DNA from: Escherichia coli
GTDB lineage: Bacteria; Pseudomonadota; Gammaproteobacteria; Enterobacterales; Enterobacteriaceae
Direction: 5' to 3' (one strand)
DNA length: 64,000 bases
Assembly: GCF_011045215.1 (NCBI RefSeq)
Contig: NZ_CP049201.1
The notes under the pieces were generated by a model that saw nothing but the letters and a program-made list of their open reading frames with translations, searched no databases and had not been told where the DNA came from. Shown here piece by piece: positions 43,322 to 64,000 of the stretch. Positions within the stretch are counted from its first letter, which is position 1, and every line of letters begins with the position of its first letter. The position numbers and the translations under genes are program-made.

Positions 43322-43328
43322 CACTAAC

Positions 43329-43353
43329 GCCCGCACATTGCTGCGGGCTTTTT
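43329..43353 (+). terminator. Intrinsic terminator after uspF
   Basis: GCCCGCA-cattgc-TGCGGGC followed by TTTTT. Confidence 0.7.
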
Positions 43354-43496
43354 GATTCATTTCGCAAATGTGCTGACATTTTCCCCTCTAATCCGTACCA
43401 TACACGCCACAGTTTTTATATCAGATTTCTTATGCTGGGCGTTCCGGCATGACGCATACTCTTCTGATGCCATATAACGAATTGAGTCGCTTTTAA

Positions 43497-43550
43497 ATGT
43501 CGCAAAATCAAGAAATTAGCAAGAAAGAACAATACAATCTGAACAAGTAA
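43497..43550 (+). pseudogene. ttcC: ttcA 5' fragment (ttcC-like), prophage attachment-site duplication
   Basis: ATG...TAA encodes MSQNQEISKKEQYNLNK, near-identical to recalled TtcA N-terminus (MQENQQITKKEQYNLNK...), then stops. Confidence 0.7.
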
Positions 43551-43652
43551 GGGCAAAAATCACAACCATCTGATGCATAATAGTTTTATTTATTTTTCAA
43601 TGCGTTAATCATTATCAGCAACAACAATAAGCTACGATAATCCACTCTTTTG

Positions 43653-43698
43653 TTGCCCCATTTTTGCCCCTTTTACAGCATTTTGCCCCATTTTTGCC
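43653..43698 (+). repeat. Two exact 16-bp direct repeats TTGCCCCATTTTTGCC spaced 30 bp apart
   Basis: Copies at 43653-43668 and 43683-43698, in non-coding DNA at the prophage end. Confidence 0.8.
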
Positions 43699-43782
43699 AC
43701 CGAAAAAATTCCAAAACTTCTCAACCTCAGCACGTTCTTGAATATGGCATATGACAATTTCCTTTACGATTTATATGCTGTT

Positions 43783-43825
43783 ATAAAAATCCCCAGTTGT
43801 CAGCAACAACTGGGGATTTACTTTT
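43783..43825. terminator. Bidirectional intrinsic terminator downstream of the HTH-peptidase gene
   Basis: Perfect 10-bp stem CCCCAGTTGT-cagca-ACAACTGGGG flanked by A-rich and T-rich runs. Confidence 0.7.
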
Positions 43826-43873
43826 CAGGCCCAAAAGACGTTCACTACGACTCTAGATGTGAGCATTTACGGG

Positions 43874-44980
43874 TCATACTAGTCGGAGCGAAGCCCTTGA
43901 TGGTGTTCTTTTGTTATTTCCGCCACTAATTGCCGCAACTCCATAAAGCAAACTACTCAATTCATCGAGAGGTACGTTAAGCTCATTACTCAAGTGAGCC
44001 AGATAAATGCCGTCTCCAGCCAGAGCAGTCATCATTTTTTCTATAACGAGTGATCTTTCGCGCTCAATTCCCCCCGGCTCACCGGTTCGATACCCCTTTG
44101 CCGTCGCATCACGCATCAAACTATTATACTGCCATTCCGTCAGCATATTTAGATTGCGCATTCTGACAATCAGGGCCATAGCCGAAACTTTCCAGAGTGA
44201 TTTCAATTGCACAATTTTATCAAACGTCGGGACCACCATCTTAACGGCCATCACGTTTTCCTGAGGCATTAGAAATGCAGAAGCAAAAGCATCCGCTTCA
44301 CGCTCAGCATCCTGCCCTTTGACTTCCCCTTGACGATGAAGTACTAGGTGAGCCAATTCATGTGCGGCATCAAAACGGCTGCGTTCACCTGACTTGCGTG
44401 TGTTAAGAAAGATATAAGGAACATCATCTTTCCAGAACGAAAAAGCATCAATACTCGCTGTTTCCTCTGAAAGCCAGAACACCTTAACTCCAAATTTCTC
44501 AAGTAGATGAACAACATTGGTGATACTCTTCTTACCAATCCCCCAAGCCTCGCGTATCGCTTGGGCAGCGACCTCAGGCTCACTTCCACGGAGATTCGGC
44601 AATTGAGGCGAAGGAAGAGTAAAGCGAGCATTAAAATAATCGCTAAGCATAACCCCTAAAGCACCTGCACCAATTGCCGCATGCTGGTCAGCAGCTTTTG
44701 TTGTGCGTAATGAACGAAATGAAACAGTCAATGGATCAATTGTTTCAACATCATCGCCAAAGAAAAAAGCCTCTGGATAATTTAAAGCACTAGCGTATGC
44801 GCGTACCGTCTCTGCCGTGGGTGCATAAAGACAATAATCTTTTTCGTATTCAATTACGATACGACTAGATAACCCGGTTCGCCTCGCCAGTTCTGCCAAG
44901 GTCAGTTTGCGTCTGATCCGCGCTAGCTTTAGTCGAGACGGATTAAAAAGACGTTTGACATCATCAACAGTGTTACTCAT
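43874..44980 (-). CDS. XRE-type HTH + ImmA/IrrE-family zinc metallopeptidase fusion protein
   Basis: N-terminal HTH (LARIRRKLTLAELARRTGLSSRIVIEYE); HEXXH motif with downstream Glu/LMP (AAHELAHLVLH...EREADAFASAFLMP); ATGA start/stop overlap with upstream gene. Confidence 0.8.
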   Translation of the reverse strand: MSNTVDDVKRLFNPSRLKLARIRRKLTLAELARRTGLSSRIVIEYEKDYCLYAPTAETVRAYASALNYPEAFFFGDDVETIDPLTVSFRSLRTTKAADQHAAIGAGALGVMLSDYFNARFTLPSPQLPNLRGSEPEVAAQAIREAWGIGKKSITNVVHLLEKFGVKVFWLSEETASIDAFSFWKDDVPYIFLNTRKSGERSRFDAAHELAHLVLHRQGEVKGQDAEREADAFASAFLMPQENVMAVKMVVPTFDKIVQLKSLWKVSAMALIVRMRNLNMLTEWQYNSLMRDATAKGYRTGEPGGIERERSLVIEKMMTALAGDGIYLAHLSNELNVPLDELSSLLYGVAAISGGNNKRTPSRASLRLV

Positions 44981-45648
44981 TTGCTTTCAACTGAAATTGA
45001 TATGTCATCATCAAAATCCTGTTCAGGGAAAATATCCGCACCTTCAAATTGCAGAGGAGCTAAAATAATTCGCTCACTCCACGCGCTTACTCTGGCAAAT
45101 CCGTCCTGATTCACCATCCCTACCGGATACGACACCTCACAGCGAATTTCTTTATTTGCCGCATCATAATAATACAGAACGATATAAGTTCGGGTGCTAT
45201 CTATCGGCGTGATCTCAGCTTTGCCTGAATGTAAGGTATCTGCTTGGAACATATCGAATGTACCCGGATTGTTGTGAACAATCGAGCGAGTTGCCTCTCC
45301 CTTTGCATTTTTGGTTTTAGGCAATCCATCAGGACGCCCGGTATGTCCGTCACCTGAGGTAATAATCAGATTAACCCCTTTGCTTGAATTAACGACCATT
45401 TCCATGCGATTGACTACTTCAGAAGACCAGCCGTTACCCTTACCAATCAGAATACGGCGAAGCGCGGCAACCATCTCACTCCAAAAGCGGAATCCAGCAT
45501 CCACTTTAGGGTGGAGCTTACTGGATTTGCGTCGCTCGTATAAAGCAGACATTAACGCATCGCGAATATCATTTTCTGTAAAGCCCAGTTTACTAAGTAC
45601 AAAATCCGAATCAATTCCTGTATGCAGAACACAATGAGGCATATTCAT
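44977..45648 (-). CDS. Hypothetical protein, partner of the HTH-peptidase gene
   Basis: ORF with GGGAG RBS before MNMPHCVLH...; stop overlaps next start (ATGA); no family recognised by eye. Confidence 0.6.
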   Translation of the reverse strand: MNMPHCVLHTGIDSDFVLSKLGFTENDIRDALMSALYERRKSSKLHPKVDAGFRFWSEMVAALRRILIGKGNGWSSEVVNRMEMVVNSSKGVNLIITSGDGHTGRPDGLPKTKNAKGEATRSIVHNNPGTFDMFQADTLHSGKAEITPIDSTRTYIVLYYYDAANKEIRCEVSYPVGMVNQDGFARVSAWSERIILAPLQFEGADIFPEQDFDDDISISVESK

Positions 45649-45884
45649 GAAAGTTTCTCCCATCACTTTTACTTCATGATTTTATCATAAAATTTATGCA
45701 AAAATCAAGAAGTGACACCCTGCAAGCGATTGTAGACTTTCTCTTGTTTTCTTACGTTCCTGCTCTCCAATTGCGCAATTGATTTCTTCAACAATATGAG
45801 AGTACACATCATAAACCTCCGACTGCAGCCAGCAACCGGAGCCTCATTCTTCAGATACCAGAACAACTCACTGCGACCTATTCG

Positions 45885-46448
45885 TTACTCAACATTAAAT
45901 GCTCGTATCGCATCTAAATCCTCCAGACTACTCAACTCCTCCTTCATCTCCCGCTGACGCTGATAAATCTCGTCATTGCGATCGACCTGCGCCTGAACCA
46001 TTGCAGTAAGTAGCTCATCCAGTTGTTGCATTGACAACTTTACCTGCTGATTTTCCGCATCACCCCATACCATGTTTTTCCGTGCCGTGACTGATTTTGC
46101 TGATATCACCACCGGGTAAAGACGGGCCATCGAATCCGGTCCCCCGTTCCAGCTATGACCGTTCCATTCAAAAATGAATGGCTGCGCCTCCTGCTCTGTA
46201 CGCCATGCTTCAATTTCCCGGCGTTTGGCTGCTTTTGCTGCTTCCAGCATCTCTGGCGTGACGGTGAACGGCGTTATTTCTCCCCACTTGCCGCTTTGCA
46301 GTTCCTGCCAGACTCGCTGCCCTGTCTCTGCTGTATCCGTGGCAGTTGCCGTATACGGAACCGGTTCATCCATGCCATCAAACAACACCCCGCAGTCAAT
46401 CGCGCCATTTTCAAGATAACGCGCATTTTCGATGCGTTTTATTTCCAT
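45885..46448 (-). CDS. Putative tail fibre assembly/chaperone protein (second module)
   Basis: Immediately downstream of second fibre gene with short overlap; size typical of Tfa; start placed at MEIKRIEN; weak sequence support. Confidence 0.5.
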   Translation of the reverse strand: MEIKRIENARYLENGAIDCGVLFDGMDEPVPYTATATDTAETGQRVWQELQSGKWGEITPFTVTPEMLEAAKAAKRREIEAWRTEQEAQPFIFEWNGHSWNGGPDSMARLYPVVISAKSVTARKNMVWGDAENQQVKLSMQQLDELLTAMVQAQVDRNDEIYQRQREMKEELSSLEDLDAIRAFNVE

Positions 46449-46455: not shown

Positions 46456-47880
46456 CTACGCAATACGTATGAACAAACCAATCATGACACTGGCTGACCC
46501 GGCAGACCCGAGTTCATCGCCTGACAGTGCACGATATGACCCCGGCATACCACCACCAGAACCCCGCACATATACGGAAACGCTGCCGTTATATCCAACC
46601 CCGCTACCGGTCGTGCCGTGACACATAAATTCAACCGCGCTCAGACGTGACCCCGGATAGCTGTACCCGCGTTTTATCCGGCGGTCGGTGTCTGCGTCTC
46701 CCTCACCGTTACAGGCCGCCAGTACAAGACTGCCTGTACCGTACCAGCCGTCCGTGGTACCGGGAGCAATACCGGACAGAAGAGAGATAATGTCCTGTGA
46801 GGTCATCTTCAGATTTTCCCAGCCAGTCAGATAACCATTACCTGTTGTCCAGTAGCGGCTGTAATAAACATCGCCATTAATACCGTAGAAAATAATGGCC
46901 TTTGCTGTATATCGCGGCTCCGGTGGATTATTGCGTGCCTCAACCCACCGGATTCTGACCACCCCGTTAAACAACACACCTCCGGATATGATTTTACTGC
47001 CACCCTCAACAAAATATTCACCCGGCGTCGCATTCCTTACCCATGCCAGAAAATCATCCTCTGTGTTAAAACGGATACGCTCTGCGGGCAAAAAAATATG
47101 CCCAAAACCAAATGCGCCAGGTGTCGCCAGACGACCTTCAGTCCGGTCACGAATGTCGCTCTGTGGCATCATTGTGGCAGCGCTTTTCAGTCCAAGATTA
47201 TCACGGGATTCCTGCTGAGCCTCTTCACCTTCATCAGCCAGCTCTGACAGGCGATTCGCCGTTTTCAGTGTCGCAGATAACGCAGTATCAATATCTGCTC
47301 TGGCCTGCTCTGCACCGGATGCGGCCTGTTTAGCAGCTTCAGCGTCCTTTTTTACCTCTGCGGCGGCATTCTCAACCTGCGAGGCCAGATTTTCGGCCTG
47401 TTGTTTACCCTCCGCAACAGCGTCGGCGTTCTGCTGAACACCTTCCGCCAGTTTTTTTACCTCTTCTTTTGCCCGGGCGGCAGCATCTGCATGTTGCCCT
47501 GCCTGTCGTTCGCTTTCTGTTGCGGTTTCGGCACCCTGCTGCGCCTGCGCCACCATTTCCTCAAATCGTTTCACCACGTCGGGTTTGAGGTCGCCTTCAT
47601 CCAGGGCAGTCAGAAAATCGTTCAGCGTGCCGGGCTTTGAGTCGTCGTATACAGCAATATCGCCAACACAGTACTCGTCGCGCCAGCCCTGTTTCAGATA
47701 TACGCAATATTTTCCGGTCTGCGCCTCAAAACAGTACTCGCCACAGTTTCCTGTCACCACGTCGGCAACTGTGCGCATCACCACCTCTGAGGTGTTTACC
47801 CGGGATTTCAGAATAATGTGGCATCCGGACATGGAGATACCTGCGCCATCAATCAGCGCACCTGATATCACTACAGACAT
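46456..47880 (-). CDS. Tail fibre protein 2 with lambda Stf-like N-terminal domain and divergent C-terminal domain
   Basis: N-terminus MSVVISGALIDGAG...VYDDSKPGTLNDFL resembles recalled side-tail-fibre N-terminal domain; Ala/Glu/Lys-rich coiled coil; Gly-rich C-terminus. Confidence 0.65.
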   Translation of the reverse strand: MSVVISGALIDGAGISMSGCHIILKSRVNTSEVVMRTVADVVTGNCGEYCFEAQTGKYCVYLKQGWRDEYCVGDIAVYDDSKPGTLNDFLTALDEGDLKPDVVKRFEEMVAQAQQGAETATESERQAGQHADAAARAKEEVKKLAEGVQQNADAVAEGKQQAENLASQVENAAAEVKKDAEAAKQAASGAEQARADIDTALSATLKTANRLSELADEGEEAQQESRDNLGLKSAATMMPQSDIRDRTEGRLATPGAFGFGHIFLPAERIRFNTEDDFLAWVRNATPGEYFVEGGSKIISGGVLFNGVVRIRWVEARNNPPEPRYTAKAIIFYGINGDVYYSRYWTTGNGYLTGWENLKMTSQDIISLLSGIAPGTTDGWYGTGSLVLAACNGEGDADTDRRIKRGYSYPGSRLSAVEFMCHGTTGSGVGYNGSVSVYVRGSGGGMPGSYRALSGDELGSAGSASVMIGLFIRIA

Positions 47881-47903: not shown

Positions 47904-48449
47904 TCAGGAAGAGGCTTCCGGAGAGACGGGCCATTCAATGGCGTTATATGAGGCTTTATCAGTGACGGTGCTGAAATCCATCGCCTGCAGCGATTTCGCG
48001 TAAATGCGGTACGCTTTCAGCTTTTCCCTGTCTTCGTCGCTGATTAATCCCAGCAGCAGGTCTTTTTCCCATTCGCTGGTCATGATGCTGGCCTGTTGTA
48101 ACAGGGCATCGCGTTCATCTTCTGCTTTAAGTTTGTAGTCGAAAACAAATTCATCATTGCGGTAAAACCAGTAACCAGGCACGGTAATACGGCGATTAGC
48201 GGTAATATCAGGAACTTCAATAACACTGGCGTTACGGGGTTCAATACCTGTCACATCCTTACCGACCCACACCACGCGTCCGTCTCCGGTGTAAACCATT
48301 TTTATGGTGTCACTGGCAAAGTTCTTCTGTTCTTCATACCAGTTTTTGCCGTCTTCCGAAAAAAGCCAGGTGACATCATACTGTTTTGTCAGCTGATATT
48401 GTTCCGCGGTTTTCGGATTACCCGCAGTAATATTTTTTAAATGCAACAT
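47904..48449 (-). CDS. Tail fibre assembly protein (Tfa/gpG-like)
   Basis: 181 aa; C-terminal region (KLKAYRIYAKSL...IEWPVSP) resembles recalled Tfa proteins; directly follows fibre gene. Confidence 0.7.
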   Translation of the reverse strand: MLHLKNITAGNPKTAEQYQLTKQYDVTWLFSEDGKNWYEEQKNFASDTIKMVYTGDGRVVWVGKDVTGIEPRNASVIEVPDITANRRITVPGYWFYRNDEFVFDYKLKAEDERDALLQQASIMTSEWEKDLLLGLISDEDREKLKAYRIYAKSLQAMDFSTVTDKASYNAIEWPVSPEASS

Positions 48450-48451: not shown

Positions 48452-50005
48452 TTAAACACTCGCCACGTTATACCAGGTGCCGTTAATCAGTTTCTGAAGC
48501 GGTCGGTAATACACGCCGCCGATGTTATCTGCTGAATTTTTTCCGGTATCCTGCACATTAATACCGGATAATCCGTGGCCTGAAGGTGAGCGAAATGTCC
48601 AGGATTTTTCGTTACCTCCCGGGTTATAAAACATTTCGGAGCCATAACGCACATCCTGCACGCCGCCATTTCGCTGCTGGTAACGGGCATCGAAATTTCC
48701 ATAGTTTGATGGAACCATCTGTCCGTTTACAGCGAATGTGATACTGCCATCGGTATTTCTCTGGCTGTAGAAATGCCAGCCGGAATCATCACCAAGCTCT
48801 GCAACTACAGGTCGGGATGAATTACCCCATAAATTAAACGTTGCATTTTTCGTGGAGTTGTTGGCGCTGGATAACGTGAATTTTTTAGCATTTCCGGCCT
48901 GAATATTTTTTAACGCTATCGCCACACCATTCTGGAAACGAAATACATGCTGTCCATTCGCATAAACATCCAGAATGCCGTCGCCGTTTTGTTTTATACC
49001 TGTATCGTTATCCCCGAAAGCAATTGAGTTTCCGCCCAGCGCGTTCTGAACGCCGATACCCAGCGCACCATTGACCTGCGAACCACCGCCAACAGACACT
49101 TTATGCGACATGGATATTTCACCAGTCCGCAGATTAATAGTGAACGGGCGAAGTGGACCAATATCGCCATTCTCGCCCTGACCTTCACTGGTAGGGATAA
49201 GGTGCAGGCACTCTTCCGAACGACGAAAAATAAGGCCAAAAGCGTCGTTGAAAATCCTCAGCGCATTAACACCACGGATTTTCAGCTCCCCGGTCATCAA
49301 ATCACCAGATTTTTTTACATATCGCAGATCAAAATCTGAATAGATATTGCTGGGGTTTATCACGCTGAAATAGCTTTTCTCGCTATCAAGAAGGCAAATC
49401 AAAGGAATACCCTTAATGATATCATTCGCTACCAGCTCGGACTTGTTCCCCTTATAAAGTGGGAACGTACCAAGAACCTTTCCGCCTAGTGTTAGTTGAA
49501 GTGTCGCCGCGTTGGTATTGTTCTGAACGGGGAAGACGATAATCGGGGTTCGTAGCGTCCAATCTGTACCCTCATTAACAAAAAACGTCGAGGGAAGTTC
49601 CAGCGCCAGTGTGTTTGCAGTGCCACCAGCAACACCCGCAATATAATGACCGCTCTGAAGCTGCGCTATCTGTACGAAATAGTTTTCCGATCCACGCGTG
49701 GCAAAGTTAGCCACTACGTCATTAAGGGACCAACCTTTCGCGGTTGTTCCTTCCTGCCCACGAATGACTTTCAGCACGTCACCGTTTACCGATACCAGGT
49801 GACAAATCTCAAATGCAGACTCTTTATTATCGGTAAGCGTAATTTTTGCATAGACGCGTTGCCCGTTCGATTTATTTTCAAAATCGGCAGAAAGCAATTT
49901 TGCAAATTTAGCTCCCGTGCCCGGCATCACCGGAATATCAGTCTGAATCGTCGTAATATCACCAGCCAGTGCTGAAACAACGTTATTGCCGAATCCAAGA
50001 ATCAT
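48452..50005 (-). CDS. Tail fibre protein 1 (P2 gpH / Mu S / Stf-type C-terminal module)
   Basis: 517 aa; segment VNALRIFNDAFGLIFRRSEECLHLIPTSEGQGENGDIGPLRPFTINLRTGEISMSH matches a module I recall from P2 H-type fibres. Confidence 0.8.
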   Translation of the reverse strand: MILGFGNNVVSALAGDITTIQTDIPVMPGTGAKFAKLLSADFENKSNGQRVYAKITLTDNKESAFEICHLVSVNGDVLKVIRGQEGTTAKGWSLNDVVANFATRGSENYFVQIAQLQSGHYIAGVAGGTANTLALELPSTFFVNEGTDWTLRTPIIVFPVQNNTNAATLQLTLGGKVLGTFPLYKGNKSELVANDIIKGIPLICLLDSEKSYFSVINPSNIYSDFDLRYVKKSGDLMTGELKIRGVNALRIFNDAFGLIFRRSEECLHLIPTSEGQGENGDIGPLRPFTINLRTGEISMSHKVSVGGGSQVNGALGIGVQNALGGNSIAFGDNDTGIKQNGDGILDVYANGQHVFRFQNGVAIALKNIQAGNAKKFTLSSANNSTKNATFNLWGNSSRPVVAELGDDSGWHFYSQRNTDGSITFAVNGQMVPSNYGNFDARYQQRNGGVQDVRYGSEMFYNPGGNEKSWTFRSPSGHGLSGINVQDTGKNSADNIGGVYYRPLQKLINGTWYNVASV

Positions 50006-50628
50006 TTTTGAATCACCGTTGTTGCATAGGAATAAATAAAAGGGAGTTTTACATATTTCTGGTCAATGGCATCTTTCAGAAAATAGCCTATACCATCACC
50101 ATATTCTGGTATCTGAATAGAAAAAACACTGTCCGATACAGTCACGCTCACATCAAAAGTGTGCTGCAACGGCGGGTCTATTCCGTTTTTTCCATGAATA
50201 AAGCGCGCCACACGGCGCTTTAACCAGTCAATGCAGAAATGCGAACCGTCAGCCTTGTAAAAATTCCACGTTAATATTCGTTTGAAATAATCATCCGGAA
50301 CATACGATGCCTGCCCCGGAACATAATTCCGCATTGCCGCATAAGGGATTGTATTGTATTCAATGGTATCGTATGCGCCGCGTGCAATAGCCTCCTCGGA
50401 AACCTGTAGTAAAGGCCTTTCAACGCCATAAATCCCGAGAGCAATCCAGTCCAGCAATTGCCCGGTTATTGATTCCGATGTCCAGCATGGCAATGCCAGA
50501 TTGTTGAGTGAATCGAGGTATTCCTGAGCAATTTCATTGTATGCATCAAAGAACGCAACAACATTCGGATCATCTCTGTACTGCACAAACGGATAAGCAG
50601 GGAGAATTTTTTCAGTCAGATATTGCAT
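50002..50628 (-). CDS. Baseplate protein (gpI-like, by position)
   Basis: Lies between J-like gene and fibre; start placed at MQYLTEKILP to limit overlap. Confidence 0.5.
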   Translation of the reverse strand: MQYLTEKILPAYPFVQYRDDPNVVAFFDAYNEIAQEYLDSLNNLALPCWTSESITGQLLDWIALGIYGVERPLLQVSEEAIARGAYDTIEYNTIPYAAMRNYVPGQASYVPDDYFKRILTWNFYKADGSHFCIDWLKRRVARFIHGKNGIDPPLQHTFDVSVTVSDSVFSIQIPEYGDGIGYFLKDAIDQKYVKLPFIYSYATTVIQK

Positions 50629-51838
50629 ACTTGTTAACTTGAACCTGTGATGCCACCGTCGAAAAATAGGAATAGGTATCGCCATAAACCAGGCTTGTGT
50701 CTTTTGCCGGAGGAACAATATGGCCATTAATGCCAATGCTCACACTGATTGTTGAGATCAACGTCGCATCAACCAACAATCTGACGGAACTGGTAAAAAT
50801 ATCCTGGATTCGCAGCAGATTTATCGGGTGTCCGACTTCAATAGAATTGATGTAATCAGCAACGTTTTGCTGCACAGCCATAGCAATACCCGCCGGATCA
50901 ACATAATCATCAGATACAGTGTTCCAGGTGATTAGCACCATGACGTTTTGTGATGACGGGATAACGAACGGCACCTGATAAACATCTGGCGAAACGGTTA
51001 TTGAAACCGTGCGTTTTTCCACTGCCGCACCAGATGGATTGCTAACATCGTTGGTCAGTTTCGAAATATCCGGTACAGATTTGTAAATAGCATAAGCCAC
51101 ATCATACGGATCACCGCCACCAACAACCGCAACCCATTTCCCCAGCGACGACTGCCGGAAAGAAATCAGGTTTTCTCGCACACCGCTTACTGATTTGAGC
51201 ATCGCTTTAAAGCAATCCGGTGTTCCCTGCACACCAAACATGCCGGACTCCATGACTTCGGCGCGGTAAGATGCCCACGTTTGCGCCTCCTGACCTGGCA
51301 TCCCTGCGGTAAGGTTCGTGCATTTTACAGGCTGATCTTTGGGTACCGATGTAATGACCTGCGTTACGGTTCCTTCCGGTACAGCCCATGAGCCTGACGT
51401 TGTGGCCACACAGTAGACTGGCTCAGTCTGCCCGCTTTCCGGCACCACCGTATCGCGGGAAACTGCATACTGGTAGTTGCCGTCACCGACAACAAATCCT
51501 TTAGGGATACCAAACCCCGGCAACGCCTCAAACACCACGTATACCGCCGTATTTGTACTTAATCCCTTCTGTGCTCCATAAATGTTTCCGAGTTGCATCA
51601 ATAACGGAATATTTGCGCCGTATGGGCTTACGGAGTTAATAAGGTCCACCCGCGCCTGGTCTATTAATGCCAGCGCCCCGACTGCCGTGCTGGCAAGGTC
51701 AGTAATAAGCCCCGCCGGAAGGTTGGCTGTATATCCAGGTACTTTTTCAGCAACTCTGATGATAAGATCTGCAAGCAAATCATTGGGTGGCGTAGGCTGC
51801 GCCCCCGCACTGGTCATAGTAATTGGTATTTCTGACAT
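50612..51838 (-). CDS. Baseplate wedge protein (gpJ/gp47-like, by position and size)
   Basis: 408 aa; GGAG RBS; order W - J - I - fibre typical of contractile-tail baseplate clusters. Confidence 0.55.
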   Translation of the reverse strand: MSEIPITMTSAGAQPTPPNDLLADLIIRVAEKVPGYTANLPAGLITDLASTAVGALALIDQARVDLINSVSPYGANIPLLMQLGNIYGAQKGLSTNTAVYVVFEALPGFGIPKGFVVGDGNYQYAVSRDTVVPESGQTEPVYCVATTSGSWAVPEGTVTQVITSVPKDQPVKCTNLTAGMPGQEAQTWASYRAEVMESGMFGVQGTPDCFKAMLKSVSGVRENLISFRQSSLGKWVAVVGGGDPYDVAYAIYKSVPDISKLTNDVSNPSGAAVEKRTVSITVSPDVYQVPFVIPSSQNVMVLITWNTVSDDYVDPAGIAMAVQQNVADYINSIEVGHPINLLRIQDIFTSSVRLLVDATLISTISVSIGINGHIVPPAKDTSLVYGDTYSYFSTVASQVQVNKYAISD

Positions 51839-55539: not shown

Positions 55540-55805
55540 TACGAAACCTCAAACTGATTCGTACTTTCGCGAAAAACAAGTTTCCCCGGTGAGCAAGGCA
55601 GCGCCAGATTGATGTCGTAACTGTCTGGTGACGCGATCAAAGGCATGTATACAATCACGTCGCCTGAACTGTCTTTCAGTTCCAGGTAGTAACGATTTGC
55701 ATACAGATTAAACGGAACGCGGGCGAATGTTTCATATTCTCCGATTCTGGCCGTGAACTGAAATGGTCCTCGCCCGTCAGGTTTGAAAGGAATTAACGTT
55801 GTCAT
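55539..55805 (-). CDS. Hypothetical tail protein
   Basis: 88-aa ORF tightly coupled between neighbours. Confidence 0.4.
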   Translation of the reverse strand: MTTLIPFKPDGRGPFQFTARIGEYETFARVPFNLYANRYYLELKDSSGDVIVYMPLIASPDSYDINLALPCSPGKLVFRESTNQFEVS

Positions 55806-56470
55806 AAGCCAAAACCAAACTCCTGCACGACCTGGTTCTTAATACCTGACCACGATAGCGCCCCGTCTGACGGCATCCCTTTATCAAATTTATCCAGAAC
55901 GCTCGCCAGCGTTTTTACCGTTTGTTCGACAGACGACAATGGTTGCTCAAACTCAATCTGCCAGGTGTGCTGAACCTGCTTGTTCTGCTCAGAGAAACCG
56001 GATGTATCGATAAACGACCGCATCAGACAGCGCGTGTAGATGAAAGATGGCGTCATTACGGTGTAACAACCGCCATACTGGTTATGCATATCGAGCGCCA
56101 TTTTCAGCGCCGTAAACGTCATCCCCTTAGTGGTGTAGCCACCGTCCTCCGTTGATACCGGACGGATCATCTGCATGACTACCCGGTTAGGCTTCCTGAC
56201 GGTCGCATTCGCTGCCGTTACCTGGTTATAGAAATTCAGGTTGCAAATATCCTGCTGGACCAGCGTTGTCCCGGCCATTGGCGTGAATGCCGCCATCGAG
56301 CGTGTATGAATCTCTCCATGCAGCAGACCGTTCGCGATACTTAGTCCTTCGGTCAGAACAGCAATCGGCATCACCCCGCCGGGAATTTTCGACGCTATGC
56401 CATCAACTAAAAGAATGGGCGAAACTTCAAACGCCAGTTTGAAAGCTTGTCCAAAGTAATTAAGTGACAT
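55802..56470 (-). CDS. Hypothetical tail protein following tape measure
   Basis: 222 aa; 4-nt gap to TMP stop. Confidence 0.45.
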   Translation of the reverse strand: MSLNYFGQAFKLAFEVSPILLVDGIASKIPGGVMPIAVLTEGLSIANGLLHGEIHTRSMAAFTPMAGTTLVQQDICNLNFYNQVTAANATVRKPNRVVMQMIRPVSTEDGGYTTKGMTFTALKMALDMHNQYGGCYTVMTPSFIYTRCLMRSFIDTSGFSEQNKQVQHTWQIEFEQPLSSVEQTVKTLASVLDKFDKGMPSDGALSWSGIKNQVVQEFGFGL

Positions 56471-56473
56471 CTT

Positions 56474-58447
56474 TTACCCCGGTATTTGTTGCGTTCCGGC
56501 GAGTTGTGCCAGTATGTCGGAACCCGGCGATTGTCGCACCTGAAGCTCAATTATTGCGCGGGCATTTTTGCCAGCACCCTGAAGGTTATCTCTGGCATTT
56601 CTTAGCTGATTCATAATACCAGGGTGTTGATCCAAAGCTCCCTGTATCTGAGGCAATAATTTAATTAAATATTTTACAGTCTCCATTCTCAAACTTAGAT
56701 TTCCATCTCTATCAATACGACCTCCGTTATATGCCGTAAGCATTTTTGCCACATCGCCTTTATAACGCCGGTTCAGATCATTTAAAAAGCGGCCAGCCGC
56801 AAGAGTGGATTTATTTGGGTCATAAACATCATCACCCACCAGACCATACTGTTTTGCGGTGCTATCCCAGAATTGCCACAACCCCTTAGCGAATCTACCT
56901 TTTTCATCTGGAGTTCCTCTTGCCAGAGGATTCCACGAAGATTCAACCTCCGCGATAGCTGACATCATATTTTTAGGAAGTCGATAAGTATTATTGGCTT
57001 GCTCTACAAAGTTCTGAATATTTCTCTTTAAATCATTAGGCATACGGTAATTTTTATATACATCATCCTGTTTATAAAACTCACCCGTATACTGATTTGT
57101 CATCGGGTTTGCTCCCGGCAACGCACCACCGAGATATTTATTCCCAAATGCCGCAAGAACTGGATCTGCCTGTTCAGCACCAACTCCGGTTCCGGGGAGA
57201 TATTTATCTTCCCCACCGATCCATTTGATAGCTGACCATATTGCTTTTGCAATCCGGCTCACCGCCAGAGAAAAATCGTCAAGATCATTTTTAAATTGTT
57301 CGCTATTCAGCCACTTACCAAGTTTCTCCAGCCCTTCGCCAGCCTCAGTGAGAATTTTCTGAAAATTTCCACCATTCAGAAAACCTTCAATATTGGATGT
57401 CAGCCCATCAGATGCACCTGTGATTAGTGGGTTATATCTGGCGAGAGCTGCATACCAGGAATTTGATATTCTGTTTCCATTTACCATCAGGTTACTCACC
57501 GTATCCTGATAACCTGACTGCATAGCTGGCGTGAGGTAAGCACCGAGCAACCTGGTATTTGATGCAAATTTCTCGTTCAGTTGGGGGATCTTGTCCAGAT
57601 TCGCTTCCACCTGGTTAGTTGTCGCGACATCAACAAATCCAAGCCCTTGTCCGTTGAGAATCCCCTGAGTAAGTCCTGAACCTTTATATTGCTTAACGAG
57701 AGATGCAAGCGCGCTCATAAGTTTGGGCAGATTCTTTGCTGCACCATCTCGAGGATCAATTCCAAGACTGACCAGACCAGCATAGTTTGGATCATTCGGA
57801 TTTTTCTGTGCGTTCGCCAGATGCTGAACCAGTTCTTCTGTGCCAGAAAAATATGGCGAATAGGTGGCACGTGCGGCCTGCATCTGTGCGGTTTCCATAC
57901 CCAGCCCCTGAGCCACGCTGTATTGCGCTGCAACCTTGCTCGCCATATATCCGTACCCGAAAGCACCGACCGAACCAAGCGCCGCAATTTTGCTCCCCCA
58001 GGATACAGTCGTTTTAAACAGCGTTTTCAGTCGTGAATTGGTCGTTTTAAGCGTTGAATTGATCTGCTTGTAAGTTTTCAGCGTCCCCTGAGCGTTTTTA
58101 CCCAGACTACTGAGATACTTATCAAACATCGTTTCGCCGCGACCTTTATAGTTGCTCACCAGCGAATCAGGTGTTTTTCCGCTACCGACAAAGCTCCCTT
58201 TTTCATCCCTTAAACGTCCATCGGTGGGCGCAGGTGAAGATGGTTTCCTGGGAGCCTGATTGGCTTCTCCGCCCGAGGTTGCCTGCTGCGTGCCACCTCC
58301 TAGACCTGTATTTGAAGGTATTTTAAGCGGCGTCCCCGCAGGGCCAATCATCAGCCCATTGCGATACTTTTCAAATATCGCCTCAAGTCGCTTAAGGTGT
58401 TCTTCATTAACGTCCAGTGTCAGAACTGGCATCTGATTACCTGACAT
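56474..58447 (-). CDS. Tail tape measure protein with lytic transglycosylase-like domain
   Basis: 657 aa, Gly/Ala-rich; SLT-like motif AIAEVESSWNPLA...GLWQFWDSTA; follows frameshift chaperone. Confidence 0.75.
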   Translation of the reverse strand: MSGNQMPVLTLDVNEEHLKRLEAIFEKYRNGLMIGPAGTPLKIPSNTGLGGGTQQATSGGEANQAPRKPSSPAPTDGRLRDEKGSFVGSGKTPDSLVSNYKGRGETMFDKYLSSLGKNAQGTLKTYKQINSTLKTTNSRLKTLFKTTVSWGSKIAALGSVGAFGYGYMASKVAAQYSVAQGLGMETAQMQAARATYSPYFSGTEELVQHLANAQKNPNDPNYAGLVSLGIDPRDGAAKNLPKLMSALASLVKQYKGSGLTQGILNGQGLGFVDVATTNQVEANLDKIPQLNEKFASNTRLLGAYLTPAMQSGYQDTVSNLMVNGNRISNSWYAALARYNPLITGASDGLTSNIEGFLNGGNFQKILTEAGEGLEKLGKWLNSEQFKNDLDDFSLAVSRIAKAIWSAIKWIGGEDKYLPGTGVGAEQADPVLAAFGNKYLGGALPGANPMTNQYTGEFYKQDDVYKNYRMPNDLKRNIQNFVEQANNTYRLPKNMMSAIAEVESSWNPLARGTPDEKGRFAKGLWQFWDSTAKQYGLVGDDVYDPNKSTLAAGRFLNDLNRRYKGDVAKMLTAYNGGRIDRDGNLSLRMETVKYLIKLLPQIQGALDQHPGIMNQLRNARDNLQGAGKNARAIIELQVRQSPGSDILAQLAGTQQIPG

Positions 58448-59128
58448 TCAATACCCCTCCCGGCGTCGTGCATTTACGCAGCTCACGAAACTGAGCTGCT
58501 GTTTTTACATTCAGACCGGAATTTGCCCAGATGTCGCTGAATCCGTCTCCGGCTGAGTAGTCGAGGATGTCGCTGATAACGTGCTCGCCGTCGCGCCAGA
58601 ACTGGCGACAGGCTTCAATGTCGGCAATGAAGCAATCCATTCCGTAAGACTCAAGGATGAAGTGCGACTGTTCCACATTCCACTGACTACCAGCATCATC
58701 TGTTCCGTCTGCTCCGGTGTGTTTATCGACGAGACGCATGTAAAAAAAACGAGTTCACCTGCCACATCATCAAATTCAACGATGCCGCGCTCTAGCGCCA
58801 TATCAAGCGGGATCGTGTCGTAGCCTTTCCCTTCGACTGGGTAAACCAGATTCGCAAGACGAATGATTTCATTCACGAGCGTATTGCGAACGCCCTTTTC
58901 GCCATCCCAGATATTCATATCTGAGGAGATCCGTTCCAGCATAAGGCAGGCGATACGCGGCCCCGAAACGACGCCAAGACCTTCTGAAAAAATGGCAGAA
59001 AAGGTTTTACTCAGAATAAAGAAATGCTCTTTAAACACCTCTTTGCTGATCGGCGTGGCATGGATCCAGCCGTTCCCCTTTTCTGTCCGGACAGGAATAA
59101 TCAGATTCAAATTTCGCGCGATTTTCAT
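58437..59128 (-). CDS. Tail assembly chaperone, 0-frame product 59128..58511 and -1 frameshift fusion extending to 58437
   Basis: Slippery T-tract (minus 58749-58742) in overlap of two frames; second frame ends 8 nt inside TMP start; classic chaperone arrangement between tube and TMP. Confidence 0.65.
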
Positions 59129-59568
59129 ACCAGATCCCACATTTCAGAGTTGATGTAATACGTACCGGTAATGGTGATGGCTACACCAGGCTCGCCCCCG
59201 GCGAAGGTCATATCCTGCACGTTGGTGATCGCCGTGTTATAGATATCGAAGTCACCGAATACCGTGCTGTCGCTATACACTTTTGCGTCGCCGATCGTGG
59301 CGTTCTTTTCCCATTGAGCCTTGAATTGTTTCCCCAGCGCCTGGCTACGCAGCAGATGAACACGCGCCTGTAAAATCATGTATGGCTGCGGCGACTGCAC
59401 GGCTCCCGTCATGGCGGGTAAAAACTCCGTGATATTGCCCTGAAAGGACAATTCGACGCCTTCTTTTGCCAGAAATGAGGCGGACACATTCAGTTCGGAA
59501 TGAGAGGTGAATTTAACGCTGGCGCGAACCCGGTTAAGGGTGCCAACGGGGATCATTGGATTAGGCAC
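59125..59568 (-). CDS. Tail tube protein (by position/size)
   Basis: 147 aa between sheath-sized gene and chaperone; ATGA overlap with chaperone start. Confidence 0.55.
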   Translation of the reverse strand: MPNPMIPVGTLNRVRASVKFTSHSELNVSASFLAKEGVELSFQGNITEFLPAMTGAVQSPQPYMILQARVHLLRSQALGKQFKAQWEKNATIGDAKVYSDSTVFGDFDIYNTAITNVQDMTFAGGEPGVAITITGTYYINSEMWDLV

Positions 59569-59579
59569 GGTTCAGTCCC

Positions 59580-60917
59580 TCACGAAAGCTGCATTGTCAC
59601 ATTGATGTTAAAAATGATTTCGACAAATCCGCGCATCGGCGTATAGGAGGCCGAAAGGCCCGCATAACGCCCGATACCGTAATCATTCGGATTCGTGTTG
59701 ATATACTGGCGGAAAGGCACTGCATCTACGACAGGCTGGCCGTTGACCAGGCCGTAAGATACGCCCGTATTGAACACCGCCTGTGCGACCTGCTGCAGAC
59801 GGTCGATCCCGTCCTGGTTGTAGTAAAGCGGGTTAATTGGGTTATTGCAGCCGTTGATCACCGCGTTGGCGAGCTGCATATCGACGTTAATCTGCACCCA
59901 ATCCACGGAATACCAGTACGTCATATCGTTACCGTCACTGGTAACGCCTTTCACCAGGATCGTGTTGGAGATTCCACCCTCAGCACCCGTTTCGATGTAG
60001 TTAATATTCTGCTTCGTCATCGTGGCCAGAATGGAATTTTTGCCCTTGTGGGCGTTTACCGCCTGTAAATAGCGAAATGCCATCGGCGGCACCTTGTTGA
60101 TTTCTGAAGGTGATGCGGAAACATAGTTCCACATTACGGCTGCTGCCGCGTTTGTCGCCGGGTACGTATCATCCGCCGTTGCAATAACCGACTTAATACC
60201 GGCATAAGGCGAAACGTAATTCGTGTCGTCCGGCGTTTTCGTCAGCACGAAGAAATACTGCATCGCTTCGTTGGCGGTGTGGAGTTTTGCCAGACTGATA
60301 AACTCTGCGTCACCATCCCACGGCTGCGGCACCAGATACGCATAAAAACGCAGGAGCGGATCTTCCATATAAGCTTTCAGTGCAGCGATTTCCTTACTGA
60401 CTCCGCCTTTCTGTACTCCCAACTCCAGCAGGTAAATCCCCACTGAATTTCCCTGGGCAAAAAACGTGTTTACTGCCGTCACCAGATTTTCACTGCCAGC
60501 AATGGAAAACTGACCCAGTGTCACTGGCGAACCGGAAAGCTGAGAATCAGCTATTGTCCAGGTCAGTGTTTTTTCATCCGCGACGGTAGCAGTATATTCG
60601 CCGTTCCACGCGTCGGGAGAGCAACCGGAAACGACAATCTTTACCTCAGAACTGTTTTCGCGCCGGATATTACTCCCTTCCGGAAGCGTCATCGTAACAG
60701 TGACGTTTGTCGCAGATTTTCCTGCGGCTGCTGCCGACAGTGCTGCAATCGGATTTTTAACCAGATCGTTGATATCCTGATTACGGGTGAGTAATACGGG
60801 TTTCCCAGGCTCATGAGTCGTGGAGCCAAACGAGAGAACCGCGGACATCTGCTGCAAATTCGAGGGAATGGCCCCGATGGTCTGGGACACATTCACCGTG
60901 ACGATATTAAATCCCAT
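59580..60917 (-). CDS. Tail sheath protein (by position/size)
   Basis: 445 aa immediately upstream of tube. Confidence 0.55.
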   Translation of the reverse strand: MGFNIVTVNVSQTIGAIPSNLQQMSAVLSFGSTTHEPGKPVLLTRNQDINDLVKNPIAALSAAAAGKSATNVTVTMTLPEGSNIRRENSSEVKIVVSGCSPDAWNGEYTATVADEKTLTWTIADSQLSGSPVTLGQFSIAGSENLVTAVNTFFAQGNSVGIYLLELGVQKGGVSKEIAALKAYMEDPLLRFYAYLVPQPWDGDAEFISLAKLHTANEAMQYFFVLTKTPDDTNYVSPYAGIKSVIATADDTYPATNAAAAVMWNYVSASPSEINKVPPMAFRYLQAVNAHKGKNSILATMTKQNINYIETGAEGGISNTILVKGVTSDGNDMTYWYSVDWVQINVDMQLANAVINGCNNPINPLYYNQDGIDRLQQVAQAVFNTGVSYGLVNGQPVVDAVPFRQYINTNPNDYGIGRYAGLSASYTPMRGFVEIIFNINVTMQLS

Positions 60918-61861
60918 TATTTAACCTCATATTTACAAATAACTTTTTCAATCAACTGCCGGGATATTTTCCGGGCGGTGCTCTGGTAGTAATTCACGTC
61001 AAAATCGACAATCTTTTTCTTCGCCAGAGCGTTGATTTCAACCTGTCCCGACTTTGCGTCCTGAACCACCGGAATATTGGTTACACCAAACTTTTCCTCC
61101 TCCAGCGCCCTGTTCACCACCGAGTCGACAAGATCCAGCGCCATTTTGTTGCTGAATCCGTAAAGCGTCAGGCGAACCGAATCCTGGACTAGCTGGAACC
61201 GCTCACCGCCGAAAACAACGGGAGCCACCTGCAACGGAATACTGTTGCGAACATCCACCGCGATATACGGAGGGCGAAGGTTCTGCGGTACCAGGTAAGA
61301 CGGATACACGGTCGCGGCATCTTTCATTTGCAGCCAGATCGGGATGCTGTTGGAGATGATCTGCTCGTCGCTGATATCCTCCTCGCAGTCGATAATCTGA
61401 GAACGCATGGTTGGTAAAATCGCCATGCCGCGATAATGAAAAATACCAGACTGCTGATAACGGCTCTCCATTCGTGAAAAAGCGAACTGGACGCCTCCGT
61501 ACTCACCGAGATAGATCGCATCGGGATTTTCCACATTAAAATCATCAACCTGCTGAACAGGCGTGAAAATAATGTTGTTCACATCCTTCGAGACAGACTC
61601 GTCCTGAATCGCAATAACCTGACGATGCAGGCTGCCTTTGATTTTCAGACGAGTTGGTGACTCAATATTCAGGCGACACAGTTCATCGCAACTGATGATT
61701 TCCGCATTAACCCAATAGACAAAGCCATCCAGCGGCAGAACCTGCCGGACATAGAGCCTGAACGTGATTTCCTGGTCTGACGAGATGGTTTCAACTGCGG
61801 ATTTAAGAACGGACGAGAGCTGCGAACTGTGCTGTTCGGCTAATTCCTCAAGACTCGGCAT
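60917..61861 (-). CDS. Hypothetical head-tail joining / tail completion protein
   Basis: 314-aa ORF between head-side genes and sheath. Confidence 0.4.
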   Translation of the reverse strand: MPSLEELAEQHSSQLSSVLKSAVETISSDQEITFRLYVRQVLPLDGFVYWVNAEIISCDELCRLNIESPTRLKIKGSLHRQVIAIQDESVSKDVNNIIFTPVQQVDDFNVENPDAIYLGEYGGVQFAFSRMESRYQQSGIFHYRGMAILPTMRSQIIDCEEDISDEQIISNSIPIWLQMKDAATVYPSYLVPQNLRPPYIAVDVRNSIPLQVAPVVFGGERFQLVQDSVRLTLYGFSNKMALDLVDSVVNRALEEEKFGVTNIPVVQDAKSGQVEINALAKKKIVDFDVNYYQSTARKISRQLIEKVICKYEVK

Positions 61862-62303
61862 TATTATCTATCCACGCTATAAAGCTGCCCTTAAACAGGC
61901 CGCCGTCTATGAATGACGGACGCCGCTCTCCGGTATACTTGTCCTTAAGCCTGGAGTTAACGCCCAGTAGCGCGGCCTGAGTTGGCACAGGGTTTCCGTT
62001 AATCGTCATCCCGGCCATTTCTTCAGTTTCAAGAAAAATATGGAAAATCTTCCCGGTCCCTTCCAGAAAATGCTCGCCAGGTAGCGGAGCCTTATACTTG
62101 AAGTGATTGACCAACTGGTACGCCAGTTCAGTACCTGCCTCCTGGATAATCTCGTCCTTATGCATTTCCCAGAAGTGCGTAAAAATTTCGTATCGCTCCT
62201 CGAGGTCACAGGCTACGTCAAACGTGGTTTTTCCCGGTTCGTCGCCGTAGTCATACGGCTGGTCGATAACCCCAAAACAAAGTTTCATGGCGTGTAACCC
62301 CAT
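61848..62303 (-). CDS. Hypothetical head-tail connector protein
   Basis: 151-aa coupled ORF. Confidence 0.4.
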   Translation of the reverse strand: MGLHAMKLCFGVIDQPYDYGDEPGKTTFDVACDLEERYEIFTHFWEMHKDEIIQEAGTELAYQLVNHFKYKAPLPGEHFLEGTGKIFHIFLETEEMAGMTINGNPVPTQAALLGVNSRLKDKYTGERRPSFIDGGLFKGSFIAWIDNNAES

Positions 62304-62725
62304 ACCGTGCCCATCTGCATCAGCACCGCAACAACCTGTCGCCCATACGGATCCTGTAACATCTGCAAATCCAGCAAAGACAGATTACTCAGCGCGTCGC
62401 TGATGGTGATCGAACCCGATGTCCCCTGGTCTGCTGCCGCGCTGACAAGCCCGGTAGCCAGTTTCCCCAGGTTGAGTTTTTTTCTCAGGTCGGCAAACCA
62501 CGAGCCGGGAGCGAAATTCAGGAGAAATGAGGCAGCAGCGTTATAAACCGTTCGCACATAGATGATGGATAAACGCTCCAGCCCCTGATCGTGAGGGATT
62601 AGCTCCATCGCAGACTGAAAGCAACATTCCAGCGTCGGATCATCGTCAGCAATAGCGTGAACCGGTACTTTCATGTCTTCACGAACGAAGCGAATAAACC
62701 CCTCCAGTGACGGACGCAGGGTCAT
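62285..62725 (-). CDS. Hypothetical head-tail connector protein
   Basis: 146-aa coupled ORF. Confidence 0.4.
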   Translation of the reverse strand: MTLRPSLEGFIRFVREDMKVPVHAIADDDPTLECCFQSAMELIPHDQGLERLSIIYVRTVYNAAASFLLNFAPGSWFADLRKKLNLGKLATGLVSAAADQGTSGSITISDALSNLSLLDLQMLQDPYGRQVVAVLMQMGTVWGYTP

Positions 62726-63222
62726 TATTTTTTAACCTTAATATTTCGCTTTGTGCTGGGCGGATTTTCCTGTTCGGTGTTAACCGCTTCCCCGGTGATT
62801 TCCATCTCAATACCGCCCGGTTGAGGTTTTTCGCCACTCTGAATCACCGCCTGATCCACTGCGTTATTCAGCGATACAGCGCTGGCTGCGAGAATTTCTT
62901 CTGACAGGGATTCCAGATTTTCCGTTTTCTGCTCCGCGCAATCCTCAATGCGACCGACGCTCACAGGTTTATCGATGGAATAGCAGATACCGGAAAAATT
63001 CTTGTCCACCTTGTCACAACGCTGGAATCCGTAAGGCTCATGCTGTCGGATGATGTGGTCGATAATATCGGACTGATTTTCGATCATATGCTGACGTCCG
63101 GACGGAATTGTCACACCGAACGACTGCGTTTTTTCGGGGAGTTTGTAGTTGAACGTGTGCGGCTGACGTGAGCAGTTAGCGATGTAGAGCTTCATAAATT
63201 TTCCCACAAAAAAGGGGAGCAT
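62725..63222 (-). CDS. Hypothetical structural protein
   Basis: 165-aa ORF; alternative start MKLYIANCS about 27 nt downstream. Confidence 0.35.
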   Translation of the reverse strand: MLPFFVGKFMKLYIANCSRQPHTFNYKLPEKTQSFGVTIPSGRQHMIENQSDIIDHIIRQHEPYGFQRCDKVDKNFSGICYSIDKPVSVGRIEDCAEQKTENLESLSEEILAASAVSLNNAVDQAVIQSGEKPQPGGIEMEITGEAVNTEQENPPSTKRNIKVKK

Positions 63223-63251
63223 TTAGCTCCCCGCATTATCAGATTGAACGT

Positions 63252-64000
63252 TTATGCGTATTTGGCAGACAACAGAGTGATCCCCTCAGGGCGGAAGTTC
63301 CAGCCCGGCGTCGCGCGCATGGTATACAACGTGGTCAGGCCGCCATCCGGCATAGGGGACGGAATTTCCGTCGGCGCTGCCATATCACAGAACATCACGT
63401 TGACGGCCTGCTGGTTAGGGACCAGCGTGGAGAAAATATTGGTGTTAATGTTGTGACGCGCTTCCGGAACCTCAATCGTCGGGTTCGTAACGATGATCAG
63501 GTCATTACCACCAGCGCCTTTACCGATCAGCGTGTCGTCCTGGCAGAAAATGATGTCGTCGCCTGCCGCCTTATCGGCGACGTCTTTAACCATCGTTCCC
63601 ACCGTTCCGGTACCACCACCAGGACGCTGGTAACTGGTCAGCTCAACAATTCCTGTCCACTCCAGCGCCTTCATGAATCGCTGTGGGCTCAGAATAACAG
63701 TCGTTAATGGCTGCCCCAGCAGCAACATGCGGGTTTTCTGGTCAGCAATCAGGCCAAGCATAAATTTAGCCATCTCGCCGGAATCCCAGGTGGTATATGA
63801 ATCATTCCCTTTGCTGTCGTTGCCCAGATTCAGCGTCACTGCGTTCGGGGAGTTGGTGATCCCCTCGTTATTAGCTGCATTCACGCCATACAGCAGCATA
63901 TTACGCAACATTTGAGCGTGTCCCTGACGGTTAGCCAGGCGCAAGCCTTCAATCAGAGAATAGCCCCAGCGATCTGCTGCATCAGTATCGAGATAGCTGT
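63252..64000 (-). CDS. Putative major capsid protein, 3' portion (open to window end)
   Basis: Reading frame stays open upstream to position 64000; position upstream of connector/tail genes; identity by position only. Confidence 0.4.
   Translation of the reverse strand, partial: SYLDTDAADRWGYSLIEGLRLANRQGHAQMLRNMLLYGVNAANNEGITNSPNAVTLNLGNDSKGNDSYTTWDSGEMAKFMLGLIADQKTRMLLLGQPLTTVILSPQRFMKALEWTGIVELTSYQRPGGGTGTVGTMVKDVADKAAGDDIIFCQDDTLIGKGAGGNDLIIVTNPTIEVPEARHNINTNIFSTLVPNQQAVNVMFCDMAAPTEIPSPMPDGGLTTLYTMRATPGWNFRPEGITLLSAKYA

Follow-up and report, generated by a model that had tools for sequence, protein, structure and literature searches.

What occupies the ttcA locus of an Escherichia coli chromosome when the genes found there are not those of the K-12 prophage Rac? 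The question is raised by a 64,000-nucleotide stretch of contig NZ_CP049201.1 (assembly GCF_011045215.1; hereafter the window, whose coordinates are used throughout), in which uspF is followed by a set of genes for a contractile phage tail. A preliminary description, finding no K-12-type remnants, had read this DNA as a different prophage that uses the Rac attachment (att) site. Comparisons of the att arm, of the early genes, and of the K-12 gene ynaK point instead to the full-size Rac lineage. We conclude that positions 43547-64000 very probably constitute the right-hand part (late, tail, and neck genes) of a temperate prophage that is a full-size member of the Rac family (Rac-SA53/Rac*W type) and has inserted into ttcA at its 5′ end. 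Prophages of this type have been described before, and the copy in the window is a new mosaic example of them.

The Rac junction and its relatives

Downstream of uspF, a reading frame of 17 codons and a stop (43497-43550, plus strand; translation MSQNQEISKKEQYNLNK) equals the annotated ttcC pseudogene of K-12. It is the displaced original 5′ end of ttcA and marks the bacterial side of the prophage junction, as had been proposed for this ttcA-like fragment. Alignment of the ttcA 5′ ends and ttcC sides of K-12, the E. coli strains W and C7, and prophage Rac-SA53 defines a 26-bp att core inside ttcC, AAGAAAGAACAATACAATCTGAACAA (43521-43546). Intact ttcA genes of K-12, W, and C7 have the same core at their 5′ end, and it differs at one position from the core annotated in Rac-SA53 (KU052037). 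Phage DNA starts at 43547 and not, as first described, at 43322; the stretch 43322-43546 is chromosomal and includes a terminator-like hairpin of uspF (43329-43348) recognized by a terminator scan. From 43547 to the end of the window, all genes lie on the minus strand and form a phage late region.

The alignment of positions 36507-43724 with K-12 (98.6% identity across 7.2 kb) continues 177 bp past the core, to 43724, and thereby includes the right att arm of Rac (43547-43724). The same arm is 97.6% identical to that of Rac-SA53, in an alignment reaching 43706. Exact 16-nt direct repeats within it, TTGCCCCATTTTTGCC, at 43653-43668 and 43683-43698 (30 bp apart), are probably to be regarded as candidate arm-type integrase binding sites. 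Motifs related to these repeats, GGGGCAAA, adjoin intR in KU052037. The insertion in the 5′ end of ttcA, the ttcC remnant beside uspF, the shared core, and the Rac-type arm adjoining that core all mark the element as a member of the Rac family.

Comparison of the structural genes with sequence databases leads to the same family. In a megablast search of a phage collection, the best match was Escherichia phage Rac-SA53 (KU052037, 52.3 kb), with 95.2% identity over 73% of the region, and among complete E. coli genomes strains C7 and C3 matched best (96.1% over 90%). The 19 structural proteins from the capsid through the baseplate protein at the gpI position are 91-100% identical to those of Rac-SA53 and E. 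coli W, and positions 53723-64000 show 96.2% DNA identity, as a late region of the Rac-SA53/Rac*W type. The nearest draft-genome contigs, which encode an identical sheath protein, carry terminase, portal, and capsid genes upstream; the best is 99.4% identical over 14.4 kb and thus does not come from the same genome. Of 5426 complete E. coli genomes, 98 contain the tail core, the laboratory strain W among them.

Two of these relatives reveal what the rest of such an element contains. Rac*W was placed at ttcA in the 2011 genome paper on E. coli W (PMC3032704), and in strain W (ATCC 9637, NC_017635.1) it forms an uninterrupted element of ~49 kb between ttcA-intR and ttcC-uspF. The order in both W and C7 is ttcA-intR-xisR-rcbA-ralR-recT-recE-kilR, then the immunity region, replication, lysis, terminase, portal, capsid, and tail genes, and finally ttcC-uspF. 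Tail and neck proteins of Rac*W are 90-100% identical to those of the window, with 97% for the first tail fibre. Rac-SA53 likewise has the ttcA/ttcC junction, the arm, the late gene order, and the frameshift site found here. According to PMC5917428, full-sized Rac-like prophages carry LT-II toxins (Jobling) and were reported in Jobling 2016 (Pathog Dis 74:ftw001), the corresponding deposit being KU052037; the LT-IIa and pertussis-like toxin genes of Rac-SA53 are located in a part beyond the reach of the window. In C7, the closest relative among complete genomes, an insertion sequence (IS) of the IS3 family splits a head-module gene annotated as DUF2213/NUDIX (36016-38651 of the extracted C7 locus), and this prophage copy is probably defective owing to that insertion.

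K-12 Rac shares with the window its integration site, ttcC remnant, 26-bp core, and right arm. Compared with Rac*W, it is 99.1% identical from ttcA through kilR, 93% from ydaF to ydaG, and 97.9% from ydaT to ydaW, for a total of 90.9-99.1% identity over ~15 kb. The K-12 gene ynaK (87 aa; 17378-17641 of the extracted K-12 locus) corresponds to the first 86 residues of the ParB-like (ParB/Srx-like) first late gene of Rac*W (37982-38239 of the extracted W locus), with 95% protein and 91% DNA identity. Judging from this alignment, ynaK is a truncated 5′ end and would mark the site at which the original late region of K-12 Rac was lost. Unlike the window element, K-12 Rac measures 23 kb and no longer has the head and contractile-tail genes, in whose place are found trkG, ydaY, ynaA, lomR::IS5, stfR, tfaR, pinR, and ynaE. 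No DNA similarity was found between the tail genes of the window and the K-12 Rac tail remnants, and the sole counterpart among the lambda-like late genes of K-12 is the N-terminal domain of StfR, a 43% match to the second fibre of the window. The simplest reading of these sequences is one lineage of prophages in which the late region comes in alternative versions or is deleted, the full-size form being that in the window. K-12 Rac would accordingly be a deleted derivative of the same lineage that keeps lambda-like tail remnants, and it is these remnants that appear to be the divergent part. The suggestion that the prophage might be a hybrid holds in the sense of Rac-family mosaics with alternative late regions, and fails in the sense of a foreign phage seated on the Rac site.

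One further relative lies outside this pattern. The sequence PP818812, named Actinobacillus phage vB_Apl-pPE4 (pPE4), is 94.5% identical to the late region of the window. Its recET, kil, and ydaT genes are of the Rac type, but its integrase and att are not the same. We considered whether it is an excised Rac genome, which is ruled out by the different integrase and the lack of similarity to the Rac att arm. Its attribution to an Actinobacillus pleuropneumoniae host looks doubtful. With its other integrase and no Rac arm, PP818812 suggests that the structural module itself is mobile among lambdoid backbones.

Contractile-tail and head genes

The late genes encode a tail of the contractile type, because a sheath matched by a hidden Markov model, a tube fold, baseplate J and hub matches, and a T8 frameshift site occur together in an order collinear with that of a Yersinia myovirus verified by electron microscopy. 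The latter, vB_YenM_29.18, bears a contractile tail that was seen on its virions (PMC9224151). It and vB_YenM_06.16-1, temperate Yersinia myoviruses of group 1 in the same study, have 16 collinear structural homologs, from the capsid to the fibre N terminus, with 30-52% amino acid identity. These phages are otherwise unlike the window element in being distant, in infecting another host, in having another protein at the tape-measure position, and in carrying no cargo between the W-position gene and J. The preliminary description had recognized a myovirus-type module, and its sheath, tube, frameshifted chaperone, SLT-domain protein, hub, J protein, and two fibre-chaperone pairs are all borne out, whereas its HxH spike has weak matches and its W and I proteins are identified by position and by identities of 52% and 39% to their Yersinia counterparts.

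On the head side, the window ends within the major capsid protein gene, whose C-terminal 248 codons are present (63252-64000; phrog_6671, E 6e-135, with a weak match to phrog_264, major head protein). This fragment is 98.8% identical to the 342-aa gene of Rac-SA53 and W. The four genes that follow (60917-63195; 314, 146, 146, and 156 aa) match phrog_6359, 6560, 6356, and 6737, none with an assigned function, and their position suggests roles in the neck and in head-tail joining; they are 98-100% identical to those of Rac-SA53 and W and are collinear in vB_YenM_29.18. The tail sheath (59580-60917, 445 aa) matches phrog_205 (tail sheath, E 2e-53) and Pfam DUF3383 (E 1e-4), and is 37.6% identical to its vB_YenM_29.18 counterpart. 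Adjoining the sheath gene is that of the tail tube protein (59125-59568, 147 aa), whose modeled structure has the Hcp/tube fold typical of a contractile-tailed phage.

The tail assembly chaperone (58511-59128, 205 aa), of the G/GT type, has a predicted −1 frameshift extension to 58437. Its slippery site, T TTT TTT in the context GTT TTT TTT A, lies in a run of eight T residues (T8; 58742-58749), and a −1 slip there leads into a frame of 100 codons, which closes where the next gene begins, for a predicted fusion product of 230 aa. The T8 run is found at the same position in five elements (the window, Rac-SA53, W, C7, and pPE4) with the −1 open reading frame (ORF) conserved, and the extension remains open even where divergence among the elements brings identity to the 72% level. 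The next gene encodes a 657-aa protein (56474-58447; phrog_7694) that occupies the tape-measure position and has a C-terminal SLT lytic transglycosylase domain (Pfam, E 4e-20). A role as the tape measure fits this protein, because its central part varies among relatives in step with the C terminus of the chaperone.

Past the tape-measure position, two small tail or baseplate proteins (222 aa, 55802-56470; 88 aa, 55539-55805; phrog_7750 and phrog_8737, respectively) have collinear homologs in vB_YenM_29.18. They are followed by the baseplate hub (54532-55539, 335 aa; phrog_196, E 4.7e-43) and by a central spike or baseplate V-like protein (53819-54532, 237 aa) that carries H215-S216-H217 near its C terminus and is annotated bppV in KU052037. 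Its profile matches are weak (TIGR01644, E 0.0017, below the cutoff of that model; Pfam Apex, E 0.1). A protein at the gpW position (53189-53536, 115 aa; phrog_7986, with no assigned function) is 52% identical to the product of the gene before J in vB_YenM_29.18 and is by this token a likely baseplate protein. The baseplate wedge protein of the J/gp47 family (50612-51838) matches phrog_6 (E 1.2e-37) and Pfam Baseplate_J (E 2.8e-7), and beyond it a 208-aa protein at the gpI position (50002-50628; phrog_8212, with no assigned function), 39% identical to the product of the gene after J in vB_YenM_29.18, is likewise assigned to the baseplate by its position. The module thus includes a sheath and a baseplate with hub, J/gp47 wedge, and putative spike. 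The spike and W-position genes are 282 bp apart, and this gap contains a G+C-rich hairpin with an 8-bp stem and with T runs on both strands (53754-53775). Should this bidirectional terminator-like site be functional, late transcripts could cross it only by antitermination.

Two fibre sets complete the late region. Tail fibre 1 (48452-50005, 517 aa; phrog_6859 and phrog_454) is followed by its assembly protein of the Caudo_TAP family (47904-48449; phrog_136, E 1.7e-60; Pfam, E 1.4e-24). Tail fibre 2 (46456-47880, 474 aa; phrog_2636, E 5e-162) begins with a prophage tail fibre N-terminal domain (Pfam phage_tail_N, E 2.4e-59) and is accompanied by an assembly or chaperone protein with a DUF4376 domain (45885-46448; phrog_1141, E 1e-86; Pfam, E 6e-16). 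Only residues 1-167 of fibre 2 match Rac-SA53 and W, whose second fibres are much longer (1061 and 1046 aa, respectively); beyond residue 167 the protein differs from those of all close relatives. Phage phiP27 shares 86% identity with part of the fibre region. A 50-mer drawn from the unique stretch of fibre 2 had no match in IMG/VR and elsewhere matched only one metagenome contig of 1978 bp.

A scan of all minus-strand genes against PHROG found no integrase or invertase in the window, and none of the ten plus-strand ORFs of at least 100 aa has a PHROG match. The preliminary description had likewise noted that the window lacks these genes and that the integration module should lie at the far end, which must be past 64000. 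No inverted repeats bracket the fibre genes, and an invertible fibre segment such as that beside pinR in K-12 is ruled out, given that neither a recombinase gene nor flanking inverted repeats are present.

Cargo beside att and among the baseplate genes

Collinearity with Rac-SA53 and W is broken at two stretches, 43725-45884 and 51847-53177. The first is flanked by the last fibre chaperone gene on one side and by the att arm on the other, and holds two minus-strand genes that match the RosmerTA (rmrTA) anti-phage toxin-antitoxin systems (PMC10440598). The toxin gene rmrT (44977-45663, 228 aa) matches PADLOC RmrT (PDLC03935, E 1.3e-59). Directly downstream, with a 4-nt overlap indicative of a shared operon, the antitoxin gene rmrA (43874-44980) matches PADLOC RmrA (PDLC03949, E 5.6e-143) as well as phrog_2439 and phrog_87. 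RmrA fuses an XRE-type helix-turn-helix (HTH) domain to an ImmA/IrrE (M78) metalloprotease whose HELAH motif has the HExxH form. An upstream toxin gene followed by a gene for an HTH plus ImmA/IrrE-protease antitoxin is also the arrangement of known RosmerTA systems (PMC10440598 and references therein). A promoter scan places a sigma-70-like promoter upstream of rmrT (45708->45679), and a perfect 14-bp hairpin lies downstream of rmrA (43787-43819). Based on these sequence features, we assign 43874-45663 as a RosmerTA defence pair.

The pair is missing in Rac-SA53, W, and pPE4, and is present in C7. This version of rmrTA was found in 7 of the 5426 complete E. coli genomes, and in C7, the one examined, it lies within the same prophage beside att.

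The second break is caused by a solitary minus-strand gene for a 386-aa protein with an HsdR-N nuclease domain of the PD-(D/E)xK type (51879-53039; Pfam HSDR_N, E 3.9e-8; HSDR_N_2, E 9.7e-8; phrog_4225, E 1e-148). The gene has a G+C content of 0.357 and a promoter-like site of its own (53097->53068), and it is inserted between the W-position gene and J, two genes that abut in vB_YenM_29.18. In Rac-SA53, pPE4, and W, the same spot holds antirepressor and hypothetical genes on the other strand (ant and two hypothetical genes in Rac-SA53; a 179-aa hypothetical gene and a partial antirepressor gene in Rac*W), which identifies it as a cargo slot.

Database entries name this protein a type I restriction endonuclease, which is a misnomer: it has 386 aa compared with the ~1000 aa of a type I R subunit, a Pfam scan detects no superfamily 2 (SF2) helicase domain, and no hsdM or hsdS gene is nearby. 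It scores 18.9 bits with the NCBIfam HsdR model, against a cutoff of 729. More than 1300 homologs were found, and the best 120 are ~380 aa in length, 62-99% identical, and distributed across Enterobacterales. Residues D68 and E82-A83-K84, which correspond to the D...ExK motif, are invariant among 20 homologs. The AlphaFold2 (AF2) model is confident for approximately residues 1-160 only, with an overall predicted local distance difference test (pLDDT) score of 59. A Foldseek search with this model returned restriction-enzyme nuclease domains (DrdV, BpuSI, and EcoR124I HsdR), all nonsignificant at E values of at least 0.019. The C-terminal 220 residues have no assignment. No PADLOC 2.0 model matches the protein, and a literature search for HSDR_N together with prophage and defence returned nothing on the 386-aa family.

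Gene context offers some indication of what this protein might do. The neighbours are baseplate genes in the window, and a CI-like repressor gene in lambdoid prophages of Citrobacter and Providencia, where homologs with ~70% identity lie directly behind the S24-family repressor gene in the same orientation (loci L010-L012 and L020-L022, from 6001/8001). The position directly behind the CI repressor gene is that of rexAB in phage lambda. This rexAB-like location suggests a function expressed in the lysogen, possibly the exclusion of other phages. We tentatively raise the possibility that the 386-aa protein acts alone as a hitherto undescribed defence or exclusion factor, exchanged by prophages between cargo hot spots. 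One Citrobacter prophage with an HsdR-N homolog further contains a gene of 367 aa that combines HTH and Peptidase_M78 domains and follows a 216-aa gene (L011 1-1200). This pair is RosmerTA-like, which indicates that the same cargo types recur in related prophages.

State and meaning of the prophage

If the window element is built like its relatives, its far end would encode a tyrosine recombinase of the IntR type, which would have recombined the core of the phage with ttcA at the 5′ end of that gene. A substitute N terminus from the phage would keep ttcA intact, and the original first 17 codons would be left stranded as ttcC. The far end would also hold the Rac early genes xisR, ralR, recET, and kilR and the immunity region. 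Upon induction, a capsid and a contractile tail would be made from the late operon; the 657-aa protein would set the length of the tail, its SLT domain would help in crossing the peptidoglycan, and the two fibre sets would determine host range. The lysogen would express both rmrTA and the nuclease-domain gene, which have separate promoter-like sites. Both inserts most likely serve the lysogen against other phages, as far as can be judged from their sequences.

Three other explanations were weighed. It is possible, but in our judgment rather doubtful, that the element is a defective remnant whose tail end is intact while head, lysis, replication, or integration genes past 64000 are deleted or interrupted. 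This explanation concerns the state of the prophage and not its identity, and relatives do differ in state: K-12 Rac is a deletion derivative of exactly such a kind, C7 has its IS3-interrupted head-module gene, and 37 of the 98 complete genomes with the tail module cover <80% of its 7.3-kb core. However, all 20-odd visible late genes are open and have the same lengths as in Rac-SA53 and W, the frameshift signal is intact, the nearest relatives (99.4%) retain terminase, portal, and capsid genes upstream, and the element in W is uninterrupted.

The proposal that an unrelated myovirus-type prophage shares only the Rac attachment site, whether replacing Rac or in tandem with it, is already largely refuted, and we consider it very improbable. 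It draws on the lack of DNA similarity to the K-12 Rac tail remnants and on PP818812, which joins the same structural module to a different integrase and att. Yet the arm beside the core is the K-12 Rac arm, contained in the same alignment as the chromosomal flank; in W and C7 this late region runs on without a break into Rac early genes with 98-99% identity to their K-12 versions; and K-12 ynaK is a leftover of the same late operon. We reject the notion of a tailocin or another headless contractile injection system domesticated by the host. Most of the phage genes in the window are indeed tail genes, and SLT domains and fibre cassettes occur in tailocins too, but the region 60917-64000 holds neck genes and the 3′ part of a major capsid gene, terminase and portal genes lie directly upstream in relatives, and the junction is a prophage att site.

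Several points nevertheless weigh against a full-size Rac-family prophage. The window ends within the capsid gene, and the integrase, early region, intact ttcA, and second att copy lie outside it. A Rac-type far end is deduced from the att arm, and PP818812 demonstrates that the structural module can occur with another integrase. The exact fibre-2 protein is not on record, and no database genome is identical to this prophage. Confidence in the tube model is moderate (pLDDT 64), assignments of the W, I, spike, and tape-measure proteins derive from position and weak matches, and sequence searches of the PDB with the sheath, tube, hub, J, and W proteins returned nothing significant. The two cargo units are known here from their sequence.

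The part of the window to the left of the junction is ordinary E. coli chromosome. Positions 2437-37507 are collinear with K-12 at 97.4-98.2% identity, with the exception of ydbA. The region of this autotransporter pseudogene, which in K-12 spans 1465063-1474005 (~8.9 kb, including IS2 and IS30), is missing at 13431-13444, where its flanks are 12 bp apart. The synteny with K-12 reported for ydbK-micC-ompN-uspF is complete: nifJ/ydbK (37723-41247, plus strand), MicC (41268-41388, minus strand; Rfam RF00121, 125 bits), ompN (41613-42746, plus strand), and uspF (42887-43321, plus strand), the last chromosomal gene ahead of the junction, are all present and collinear within the 98.6% alignment.

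For a late region that is labelled almost wholly "hypothetical protein" in public records, this analysis supplies annotation at the level of function, including the sheath, tube, frameshifted chaperone, hub, J protein, and fibres. The contractile-tail genes at ttcA very probably do not belong to a foreign phage that has displaced Rac, but represent Rac as it was before deletions of the K-12 type. The module has two cargo slots, one beside att and one between the W-position gene and J, which strains fill with different genes; here they hold a RosmerTA system and an uncharacterised nuclease-domain gene. The latter is the sole part of this prophage that might repay experiment.

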